A stretch of 64,000 bases of DNA from assembly GCF_058153355.1 (NCBI RefSeq), contig NZ_CM177019.1; one strand, 5' to 3'. Made by a program: the position numbers and the translations under genes. The notes below the pieces were generated by a model, which was not told the origin of the DNA, searched no databases, and saw nothing but the letters and a program-made list of their open reading frames with translations. Shown here one piece after another: positions 13,744 through 59,487 of this stretch (positions within the stretch are counted from its first letter, which is position 1; the number at the start of each line of letters is the position of its first letter).

Positions 13744-13774
<31 letters not shown>

Positions 13775-13804
13775 TCTACCCCGGTTTCCCAGATTGCAGG
13801 CATG

Positions 13805-15112
<1,308 letters not shown>

Positions 15113-16024: not shown

Positions 16025-16050
16025 AAAGCCGCAGCCGCGGCTTTTTTATT
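16025..16050 (+). terminator. intrinsic terminator after artJ (overlaps convergent rlmC stop)
   Basis: AAAGCCGC-AGCC-GCGGCTTT hairpin plus TTTTTATT. Confidence 0.6.
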
Positions 16051-17173
16051 GCTTCACCAGCAGCGTCAGCACTTCATAGTGCGCGGTGTGCGGGAACATA
16101 TCAAAAAGCTGTACCCGTTCAATACGATAACCTGACAATTCGCGGATATCTTTGGCCATCGTTTGGGCGTTACAGCTGGAGTAGATGATAAAACGCGGTG
16201 CCATCGTTGAAAGATAATCACACAGCGGTTTACCAATGCCGCGGCGCGGCGGGTTAACCAGCACCAGCTCCGGCACCTCCCCCTGAGCGGTGGCAAACTG
16301 AGTGGAGTCCAGCGCCTGAAATTGCAAACGCGTTAAGCCCAGTTCAGCAGCTGACTGCTTCGCACAGGCAATGGCCTCTGGCGCAATTTCGATCCCGGTT
16401 AACTGCATGTCAGGCGTCGCGCAGTGTAAACCAAAGCCGCCCACGCCACAGAACAGATCCCACATATGTTTAACCGGCAACTGTCGTACCCAGTCGCGCG
16501 CAGTAGCGTACAGCTGGCTGGCGACCACCGGATTAGTCTGGAAGAAACTTTGTGGACGGATCCACAGCGGCACATCGTTAAAACGCTCAGCCAGCGCCTG
16601 TTGTTCGCTCAGATAAATCTCCGTCTCCCCTTCCATAATCGCCATATGTACCGGCTGAATATTGACGGTAATAACTTTCAGCTGCGGTAATTGTTCCTGT
16701 AACCACGGCAGCGCCTTACGCATTTGCGCCAGTTTGGTATCAGAACGCAGTACAAAACGCAGCATCATGCCGCCATCGCTCTGGCTTTCAGTCAGCAGAA
16801 TGTATTTCAGTTCACCACGCTTACGCGCCACGTTGTAAGGCGTTAAACCCGCACGGGCGATAAACGGTTTTAGCGCCGCAAAAACGGGCGCAAATGAGGC
16901 TGGATAAAGCGGGCAGTCACAAAGGTCTTCCGGTGTACCATCTCGATGCAGCATACCGAGCAGTGGTTTTTCAACGCTACCACTCACCACCATTTTAGCT
17001 TTATTACGAAACCCTTGTTCCGGGCCTGACACCGGCGCACACCATTCCTCAACCGGAAAATCAGCGAGCAGATTTTTAAGATCGGCGGTTTTAGCGGAGA
17101 GTTGCTCTGGAATCGGCTACGTTATCCACTGACAGGAACGACAGCGACCCGCGTCGTAAAGTGCGCACTGCAT
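16046..17173 (-). pseudogene. rlmC: 23S rRNA (uracil747-C5)-methyltransferase RlmC interrupted by an in-frame amber codon at codon 19
   Basis: From ATG at 17171-17173 the frame reads [24 protein letters not shown]...; TAG at 17117-17119 where K-12 has Gln as I recall it; rest of the 375-codon frame intact. Confidence 0.8.
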
Positions 17174-35212: not shown

Positions 35213-35839
35213 ATGATTACGCTGTGGGGTCGGAATAATTCAACCAACGTAAAAAAAGTATTGCTGATGCTCGAAGAACTGGAACTACCTTATGAGCAAA
35301 TTCTCGCGGGCCGTGAGTTTGGGGTAAACCACGATGCTGATTTTCTGGCGATGAACCCTAACGGGCTGGTGCCGTTGTTGCGTGACGACGAAAGTGATCT
35401 CATCCTTTGGGAATCAAATGCCATTGTCCGCTATCTGGCGGCACAGTATGGGCAAAACCGCCTGTGGATCGACTCACCGGCACGCCGTGCAGAAGCGGAA
35501 AAATGGATGGACTGGGCAAACCAGACGCTCAGTAATGCCCATCGCGGGATCCTGATGGGATTAGTCAGAACACCACCGGAAGAGCGCGATCAGGCCGCCA
35601 TTGATGCCAGTTGCAAAGAGTGCGACGCCCTGTTTGCCCTGCTCGATGCGGAACTGGCAAAAGTAAAATGGTTCTCTGGCGACGAGTTTGGTGTGGGCGA
35701 TATCGCTATCGCTCCGTTCATCTACAATTTATTTAACGTTGGCCTGACCTGGACACCGCGTCCAAATCTGCAACGCTGGTATCAGCAACTCACTGAACGC
35801 CCCGCAGTGCGCAAAGTGGTGATGATCCCCGTTAGCTAA
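35213..35839 (+). CDS. gstB: glutathione S-transferase GstB (YliJ)
   Basis: 208 aa GST-fold protein; synteny. Confidence 0.88.
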
Positions 35840-36951
35840 TTGCGTGGGCTAACTTTAAGTAATTCCCCACTGGACTCGTCGGTGAGAACGTATAAATAAC
35901 CGTCGGGTCCAGTGCGAACATCACGAATTCGCTGCCCTCTGTCCGTTAAAATACGGCCATCTTCTGTCACTTTGTCGCCGTTGACGCTCATCACAATGAC
36001 ATCTTTATCTTTCAGCGCGCCAATAAATAATTTTTGCTGCCACTGGGGGAATTTATCGCTGTTATAGAAGGCCATGCCGCTCACGGCGGGCGAATCTTTC
36101 CAGTAAAAAACAGGTTGCTCGGTCCCGGCGACGATCTCCCCTTTCGCTTCCGGTATCTTAAATCCCGAATAGTTGATTCCCCAGGTTGCCAGCGGCCAGC
36201 CGTAGTTTTTGCCTTTTTGCGGGATATTAATTTCATCACCACCGCGGGGGCCATGTTCATTTAGCCACAGTGCATTACTCCAGGGATTCATCGCCATTCC
36301 TTGCGGGTTACGAATACCATAAGACCAGATCTCGGCGCGTGCATCGGATCTCCTGGCAAAAGGATTATCATCCGGGATCTCGCCCTAGTCAGTAAGACGC
36401 ACCAGTTTGCCCTGTAATTTATCCAGATCCTGCGCCGTCGGGCGCTGATTGTTTTCGCCCAGAGCAATAAAAAGATAACCTTTACCGTCGAATACCAGCC
36501 GCCCGCCAAAATGGTTGCCGGTAGACAGTTTTGGCATCTGGCGAAAAATGGTGCGGAAGTCGGTCACTTTTGAGAGATCATCACTTAAACGACCATACCC
36601 CACGGCAGTTCCGGCTTTGCCATCATCGCCAACTTCGGAATAGCTTAACCAGATGCGGCGCGACTGGGCAAAATCAGGTGCTAAAGCCACATCCATTAAG
36701 CCGCCCTGCCCGTGCGCCCAAACTTCCGGCACTCCGGAAAGCGGCGCAGATAATCCTTTTCCTGCTTGCCAGCGACGTAACTCACCGCCGCGCAGGGTGA
36801 TTAACATGCCGTGATTATCAGGTAAAAAGGCCAGCGCCCAAGGGTGAGCGAGTTTGTCTTGCAGTACCTCGACATTTACCGTTGCAGGAGCCGCCCAGAG
36901 AGCGGAAGAAAGACAAATAAGGGGCACAGAGAAAAAGAATTGTCGATGCAT
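35836..36951 (-). pseudogene. yliI: soluble aldose sugar dehydrogenase YliI interrupted by an in-frame amber codon (codon 189 of 371)
   Basis: ORFs 36385-36951 and 35836-36297 are in the same frame; frame reads ...KLVRLTD*GEIPDDNPF... with TAG at 36385-36387; total 372 codons equals full-length yliI. Confidence 0.8.
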
Positions 36952-37031
36952 AACGCCTCCGGATTGACTCTGGCTTAAAGCGTAGTCAGTGGAGGCGATA
37001 ACAAATTCATTTTTACAAAAACTTAAACATG

Positions 37032-37056
37032 AAGGGGGAGACGCTTTCTCCCCCTT
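37032..37056 (-). terminator. hairpin downstream of bssR (possible terminator)
   Basis: AAGGGGGAGA-loop-TCTCCCCCTT perfect inverted repeat just 3' of the bssR stop. Confidence 0.4.
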
Positions 37057-37061
37057 AGTTT

Positions 37062-46301: not shown

Positions 46302-48173
46302 TTATCTACGCATGAATGCGTATTCTGATTGTGGTTGTGCGACGTAATGCCCCGGCCCGACGCATTGCAACGAGACGGCTGCAACCTCTTCGCCACGCAG
46401 ATGAATATTGCTGGGAAGATCGTCCGACAGCAGTACACGCTGCGGTCGTTGTCGGGACGGTTCAGCGACCGGAACTGCCGCCAGTAATTTACGCGTATAA
46501 GGATGCTGCGGGTTTTCAAAGACCGCGCGCCGTGGACCAATTTCAACAATTTGTCCGAGATACATCACCGCCACACGATGACTAATCCGCTCTACCACGG
46601 CCATATCGTGGGAGATAAACAGATACGCAATGCCGAAATCACGCTGGAGATCGAGCAACAAGTTGATAATCTGCCCGCGAATAGAAACATCCAGCGCCGA
46701 GACGGCTTCGTCGGCAATGATCACTTTTGGATTCAATGCCAACGCGCGAGCAATGCAGATGCGCTGGCGCTGACCGCCGGAAAACTCATGCGGGTAACGC
46801 CAGGCATGTTCAGGTAACAGGCCCACGCGCTCCAGCAACCACGCAACGCGTGCAGCCGCTTCTTTACCTGGCAATAAACCGTGTACGCGCAGCGGTTCGA
46901 TAATCGAATCACCGATGGTCTGACGTGGGTCCAGCGAAGCGTAAGGGTCCTGAAAAATAAACTGAATATCGCGACGCAATGCCTGAAGTTTGCCGGGTGA
47001 CAAAGTATCGATTCGCTGACCGTTAAAGATAATTTCGCCGCCCTGCGATTCGACCAGGCGCAGCAACGCCCGCCCGGTAGTGGATTTACCGCTGCCAGAC
47101 TCGCCCACCAGCGATAGCGTTTCGCCAGGCCAGAGATCAAAACTGACTTTCTCAACGGCATGCACTTCCCGCGTTACGCGATTCAACAAACCGCTGCGCA
47201 AAGGGAAACGGGTGACCAGATTACGCACCCGTAAAACAGGTTCGCCATCCACCACCGTTTTCTGCTCGATGGGTGGTTCCTGTTTCGCTGGATGTTCAAG
47301 CGATATCAATGGGAAACGTCGGGGATAATCTAACCCTTTCATCGCACCAAGTTGCGGAACAGCAGCTAACAGCGCACGGGTGTAAGGATGTTGCGGTGCA
47401 TGAAAAATCTGTTCGACGCTACCCGTTTCCACCGCCTCGCCCTGATACATCACCAGTACCCGATCGGCAATCTCTGCCACCACGCCCATATCGTGAGTGA
47501 TAAAGATAACGCCCATCGACATCTCTTTTTGCAATACTTTGATTAATTGCAGGATCTGCGCCTGAATAGTGACATCCAGCGCGGTGGTTGGCTCATCGGC
47601 AATCAGCACCGCCGGACGGCATGACAACGCCATCGCAATCATCACTCGCTGGCGCATCCCGCCAGAGAGTTGATGCGGATAACGTGAAAGAATGGTTTGT
47701 GCCTCCGGAATGCGTACCTGATCCAGCATCCGCTTCGCCTCGACCATTGCTTCTTCACGACTGGCGTTTTGATGCAGACGAATTGATTCGGCAATCTGTT
47801 CACCCACAGTAAATACCGGGTTCAGCGATGTCATCGGCTCCTGAAATATCATCGCCATATCCGCACCGCGCACATGGCGCATTTGTGCAGCGCTCTGTTC
47901 GCTAAGTTCAATCACCTCACGACTGCGCCGCCGCAACAGCATTTGATCGCACGGCACTAAACCACCCGCCTGTTCCAACAGGCGCATCAATGCCAGCGCA
48001 GTCACTGACTTACCGGAGCCGGATTCGCCAACAATTGCCAGCGTCTCACCACGTTGTAGGCTAAAAGAGAGATTGCGGACCGCAGCTATTTTCTGCTGGT
48101 CCTGCCTAAAGGCAATATTCAGATTTTCAACCGCCAGCACATCACCGGCATCAAGTTCATCACTGTGTGGCAA
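46302..48173 (-). CDS. gsiA: glutathione ABC transporter ATP-binding protein GsiA (two ABC domains); start codon uncertain
   Basis: Two Walker A/signature sets; the codon aligning with the remembered K-12 N-terminus ([10 protein letters not shown]) is TTG at 48171-48173, the ORF also extends to a GTG at 48281; overlaps iaaA 3' end. Confidence 0.85.
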
Positions 48174-55766: not shown

Positions 55767-56582
55767 ATGAGCGTAAAAGTTATCGTCACAGACATGGACG
55801 GTACTTTTCTTAACGATGCCAAAACGTACAACCAACCACGTTTTATGGCGCAGTATCAGGAACTTAAAAAGCGCGGCATTGAGTTCGTTGTCGCCAGCGG
55901 TAATCAGTATTACCAGCTTATTTCGTTCTTTCCTGAGCTAAAGGATGAGATCTCTTTTGTCGCGGAAAACGGCGCACTGGTTTACGAACATGGCAAGCAA
56001 CTGTTCCACGGCGAACTGACCCGACATGAATCAAGAGTTGTCATTGGTGAACTGCTGAAAGACAAGCAGCTCAATTTTGTTGCCTGCGGTTTGCAAAGCG
56101 CGTATGTCAGTGAGAATGCGCCAGAAGCATTCGTCGCGCTAATGGCAAAACACTACCATCGTCTGAAACCTGTGAAAGATTACCAGGATATTGATGATGT
56201 ACTGTTCAAGTTTTCGCTCAACCTGCCTGACGAACAAATCCCGTTAGTGATCGACAAACTGCATATTACGCTCGATGGCATTATGAAGCCCGTCACCAGT
56301 GGTTTTGGCTTTATCGACCTGATTATTCCTGGCCTGCATAAAGCGAATGGTATTTCGCGGTTACTGAAACGCTGGGATCTGTCACCGCAAAATGTGGTAG
56401 CGATTGGCGACAGCGGTAACGATGCGGAGATGCTGAAAATGGCGCGTTATTCCTTTGCGATGGGCAATGCTGCGGAAAACATTAAACAAATCTCCCGTTA
56501 CGCTACCGATGATAATAATCATGAAGGCGCGCTGAATGTGATTCAGGCGGTGCTGGATAACACCGCTCCTTTCAATAAGTAA
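55767..56582 (+). CDS. ybiV: HAD-superfamily sugar phosphatase YbiV
   Basis: 271 aa; HAD motif [10 protein letters not shown]. Confidence 0.9.
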
Positions 56583-58117: not shown

Positions 58118-58213
58118 CAAAATCATGCAAATTCAATATATTGCGATACACTGGTAGATACTGTTATGGCCTGCAAGTTTTTTTCTACCCCGGTTTCCCA
58201 GATTGCAGGCATG

Positions 58214-59440
<1,227 letters not shown>

Positions 59441-59487
59441 TGATAAGCGTAGCGCATCAGGCAATTTTGCATTTGTCATCAGTTTCA

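Follow-up and report, generated by a model that had tools for sequence, protein, structure and literature searches.

The window analysed here, a 64-kb stretch of E. coli DNA, carries the genes rimO, bssR, yliI, gstB and dacC in the order that they have in K-12 and in three other E. coli genomes. On the minus strand, from 36951 to 35836, translation gave one frame of 371 codons followed by the terminal stop, interrupted once, at codon 189 (Table 1). When glutamine was restored at this codon, the product aligned with PDB 2G8S (E. coli YliI/Asd) over residues 21-370 (E=6.2e-238), and a single Pfam domain, GSDH (PF07995), was recognised in the restored protein from residue 34 to 366 (E=3e-134). 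The yliI region was found in 5424 of the 5426 complete RefSeq E. coli genomes, with a top identity of 98.4%. By its full-length similarity and its chromosomal position the gene is the orthologue of YliI/Asd (GSDH), although it has no uninterrupted frame. An earlier note on this DNA, made from the letters alone, had named the full-length product an aldose sugar dehydrogenase, and the end-to-end match of the restored protein with 2G8S bears this out.

Table 1. Positions of the yliI features and of the other elements of the window that are mentioned in the text.
Feature	Position	Strand	Basis or remark
yliI (asd) pseudogene	35836..36951	-	translation; gap-free alignment; 2G8S and GSDH matches; synteny
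bssR-yliI intergenic region, intact	36952..37061	-	bssR terminator hairpin and GGAGG ribosome-binding site
Premature TAG (amber), codon 189; ancestral CAG (Gln)	36385..36387	-	frame reading, intact alleles and K-12
CTAGG, from Dcm site CCAGG; changed at 36387, the inner C that Dcm can methylate	36384..36388	-	intact relatives read GAC-CAG-GGC
N-terminal ORF, 188 aa; signal peptide and first propeller half	36385..36951	-	ORF listing; exact product in Logan assemblies
C-terminal remnant ORF, 153 aa; starts at internal Met219, without signal peptide	35836..36297	-	ORF listing
rlmC	17173..16046	-	
TAG at codon 19 of rlmC	17119..17117	-	CAG in a panel of four genomes
Direct repeats, two copies of 1294 bp	13745-15038 and 58154-59447	+	100% identical; each with an IS621 element
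IS621 transposases	13854-14834 and 58263-59243	-	IS110 family, 326 aa, RNA-guided
Pentapeptide-repeat protein gene	7691-9460	-	589 aa, intact
ybiV	55767-56582	+	

According to the literature, YliI is a periplasmic, soluble, PQQ-dependent aldose sugar dehydrogenase, one of only two PQQ enzymes known in E. coli and typically of low abundance. It works with PQQ imported from outside, and PQQ-dependent growth relies on this external supply. The K-12 gene for YliI/Asd (b0837) occupies the same position between bssR and gstB and has the same length as the gene in the window, from which it differs at 52 nucleotides and 13 amino acids, the stop included. At codon 189 the comparison with K-12 yliI gave CAG, whereas the TAG of the window interrupts the frame in the middle of the domain. 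The ATG start of yliI is intact, and the 110 nt upstream of it show one difference from K-12 and three from the closest allele. At its other end yliI is convergent with gstB, the two genes overlapping by 4 bp.

The minus strand reads ...CTT ACT GAC TAG GGC GAG..., with T at 36387, A at 36386 and G at 36385, and the peptide context of this single internal stop is LVRLTD*GEIPDD. The gene was aligned without gaps, over 1116 columns, with two intact alleles of E. coli that are 98.4% and 97.8% identical to it, both of which have CAG in columns 565-567. The earlier note had proposed that the amber codon splits yliI into two ORFs and that it is the only defect of the gene. Both statements stood: according to the ORF listing and the translation the two ORFs share a frame and sum to the 371-codon gene, no indels separate it from the intact alleles, and the start codon, the ribosome-binding site and the upstream region are preserved. 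The other changes in yliI that are private to this lineage amount to one missense substitution (D35A) and six synonymous ones, and since no further decay is seen, the inactivation appears to be young. Taken together, these observations argue strongly that yliI is a recent, lineage-specific nonsense pseudogene, very probably produced by one C-to-T change that turned CAG into TAG at codon 189.

With regard to the consequences, translation would stop after Asp188 and release an exported fragment of 188 residues, with roughly one half of the six-bladed beta-propeller that makes up the single domain of the protein. As the stop falls midway in the GSDH domain, the loss of the C-terminal half of the propeller, which the earlier note had also predicted, agrees with the domain layout. 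Such a half-propeller would not be expected to fold into an enzyme able to bind PQQ and sugar, and from this layout the gene is most likely null. The C-terminal ORF of 153 aa is probably not translated, and would probably be useless if it were. A polar effect of the stop is most likely absent, because yliI and gstB are convergent and no downstream gene relies on yliI being transcribed. Tolerance of the loss may be explained by the existence of a second PQQ-dependent periplasmic dehydrogenase, by the low abundance of YliI and by its use of PQQ supplied externally. Soluble PQQ-dependent aldose dehydrogenase activity is thus predicted to be missing in this lineage, which would be left with the membrane enzyme Gcd, assuming that gcd, which lies outside the window, is present. 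In the annotation of this genome yliI should carry a pseudogene flag ("internal stop"); beyond that, the allele is of little importance.

The TAG on the haplotype of the window was not found in complete RefSeq E. coli genomes, where each of the 18 genomes with the same flanks carries CAG, and the exact 50-mer containing the TAG had no match in 100,044 species-representative genomes. The closest complete RefSeq E. coli genome reaches 98.9% identity over 24 kb. Because this best identity is only 98.9% and the species representatives lack the TAG 50-mer, the lineage of the window is a rarely sequenced one of E. coli. The same mutation was present elsewhere: yliI of strain 21B8 (NZ_CP040309.1, FEK99_RS08265) carries the identical C565T, giving Q189* at the same CCAGG site, and is called a pseudogene with an "internal stop" by PGAP. 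The 21B8 allele has a K-12-like haplotype, which departs from K-12 at seven positions and from the allele of the window at 51, and at this distance Q189* must have arisen independently in the two strains, without shared ancestry. A different nonsense allele, Q303*, occurs in AR_0114, and other truncated or frameshifted YliI products are present in the public protein collection. Since nearly all complete genomes keep yliI and the lesions are scattered (Q189* twice, Q303*, frameshifts), loss of the gene appears to be tolerated but rare, recurring sporadically. An allele of this kind is already annotated publicly, in 21B8, and the case of the window is an ordinary one.

The C-to-T change struck the inner C of a CCAGG sequence, and for this reason deamination of 5-methylcytosine at a Dcm site is, in our view, the most likely origin of the amber codon, a reading that is plausible, if unproven, and that we hold with moderate confidence. 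The dcm and vsr genes are located outside the window. In this mechanism the inner C would have been methylated, deaminated to thymine and escaped very-short-patch repair, leaving TAG; 5-methylcytosine deamination is normally countered by Vsr through this repair pathway (PMC2715241). The classic precedents are the amber hotspots at CCAGG sites in lacI (Coulondre et al., 1978, as reviewed in PMC12606429), and a hotspot effect of roughly 10-fold has been reported for such Dcm sites (PMC12606429). The hotspots described by Coulondre, Miller, Farabaugh and Gilbert (1978) likewise involve the change of CCAGG to CTAGG at the inner C, turning CAG into an amber codon; in contrast to them, what the window holds is one naturally occurring allele of a wild isolate. 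If it did arise in this way, the allele would be a case from nature of the textbook change of CCAGG to CTAGG that yields amber codons.

The reading that competes most closely with a Dcm origin is that the C-to-T change was an ordinary replication error, or a deamination of unmethylated cytosine, which fell within CCAGG by chance and in which Dcm had no part. Codon 189 is the only CAG codon of K-12 yliI in the CCAGG register, and Dcm positions account for 3 of the 43 sites at which a transition would create a stop in the restored yliI of the window, so that a chance match would have a probability of about 7%. When lineage-private substitutions were polarised against four E. coli genomes over the whole window, 3 of 94 private G:C>A:T changes fell at Dcm 5mC positions, which make up 1% of G:C positions; this enrichment of about threefold, at only p=0.067, would also speak against chance, as would the roughly 10-fold effect reported at such sites and the fact that the site at codon 189 was mutated twice independently. 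On the other hand, in favour of an ordinary origin, G:C>A:T changes dominate the private changes window-wide (96/176).

The stop allele was also counted at four yliI codons in complete E. coli genomes, two of them at Dcm sites and two not. At the Dcm sites, codon 189 (CAG>TAG) had a stop in a single genome of 5175, that of strain 21B8, and codon 257 (TGG>TAG) in none of 5422, while outside Dcm sites a stop was seen in 1 of 5421 at codon 303 and in none of 5414 at codon 174 (both CAG>TAG). Population frequencies at these four codons in complete E. coli genomes therefore do not separate codon 189 from the non-Dcm controls, and the equal frequency at codon 303, together with the lack of any stop at the Dcm codon 257, is in favour of chance. 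Recurrence at codon 189 was dropped as evidence of hypermutability, the non-Dcm codon 303 having one carrier as well. All considered, an origin without Dcm is a tentative alternative, less probable than Dcm deamination though by no means negligible.

A sequencing or assembly error, with the true gene intact and CAG at codon 189, would also account for a difference of one base only, and for the fact that no complete RefSeq E. coli genome has this TAG on this haplotype. The public protein collection contains the exact truncated product of 188 aa, there derived from Logan assemblies only, and three Logan contigs carry it. One of these, the 36,317-bp contig of SRR28786219, has the same TAG in yliI, and across a 20,567-bp locus it differs from the window by a single mismatch, at window position 46354. 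The TAG has thus been recovered from a separately assembled public read set whose locus differs elsewhere by one base, which makes reads with CAG at this position unlikely. Furthermore, the change is a substitution, unlike the homopolymer indels typical of sequencing errors. The read sets could in principle be those of the window assembly itself, against which the single mismatch argues weakly. An error confined to a single assembly is unlikely, and we consider it very improbable that the TAG is an error of any kind.

Codon-by-codon comparison with close relatives showed 53 of 55 genes of the window to be intact, the exceptions being yliI and rlmC. The lineage-private changes comprise 155 synonymous, 19 missense and 2 nonsense substitutions, with a normal, transition-biased spectrum. 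A hypermutator, a mutagenised or a Shigella-like decaying genome was ruled out by this normal spectrum and by the 53 intact genes.

The second nonsense change is a private CAG-to-TAG at codon 19 of rlmC. It does not lie in a Dcm site, and apart from it the gene is intact. None of 5418 complete E. coli genomes has this TAG; they match the surrounding 61-mer with one mismatch. The product of rlmC is the 23S rRNA m5U747 methyltransferase. The rlmC TAG was also found on the 36,317-bp Logan contig of SRR28786219, alongside that of yliI, and the same contig encodes a truncated RlmC of 328 aa from a GTG restart. Among the candidate starts of RlmC, only this 328-aa GTG form was represented in the protein collection; products from the others were not found there.

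The presence of two ambers raised the possibility of a natural Gln-inserting amber suppressor (supE-like, with anticodon CUA), by which the TAG codons of yliI and rlmC would be partly read as Gln to give wild-type proteins. The two lineage-private CAG-to-TAG changes (yliI Q189* and rlmC Q19*) in 55 compared genes fit this reading: both stem from Gln codons, so that a supE-type tRNA would give back exactly the wild-type protein, the two lie on one Logan contig, and that of rlmC is missing from all 5418 genomes. Still, the reading is very improbable, the least probable of those considered here, since 2 nonsense beside 19 missense changes are unremarkable (P of at least 2 in 21 of about 0.28, assuming that nonsense changes make up about 5% of non-synonymous ones), no transition path to a stop is commoner than CAG>TAG in E. 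coli codon usage, so that two Gln-to-amber changes would be met fairly often, no tRNA gene lies within the 64-kb window, and yliI and rlmC are both non-essential in E. coli. A search for a suppressor tRNA inside the window accordingly returned none. Were the isolate to carry such a suppressor, selection would hardly act on CAG-to-TAG changes, which could build up, the ambers of the window would be the visible part of TAGs tolerated genome-wide, and only then would the yliI case gain interest. With yliI taken as a nonsense pseudogene, its amber codon, that of rlmC and the two IS621 copies of the window could possibly serve as a set of markers for the lineage.

The two IS621 copies lie in the artM-artJ and DUF1479(ybiU)-ybiT intergenic regions and are absent there in four comparison genomes; they are 97.7-99.6% identical to IS621 elements annotated elsewhere in E. 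coli. The SRR28786219 contig with both amber alleles ends at about 15086, just past the first IS621 copy, and at about 51402, in the moeB-fsa intergenic region, ends that fit breaks of short-read assembly at repeats. Between ybjQ and ybjP the window has an intact pentapeptide-repeat protein gene, which is annotated as frameshifted in the close relatives 2020CK-00188 and EC42405, and no K-12 gene is annotated between ybjP and ybjQ. Finally, ybiV shows 92.7% identity, with two gaps, to the otherwise closest genome, while its neighbours show 98-100%, and this divergence suggests a recombined allele.
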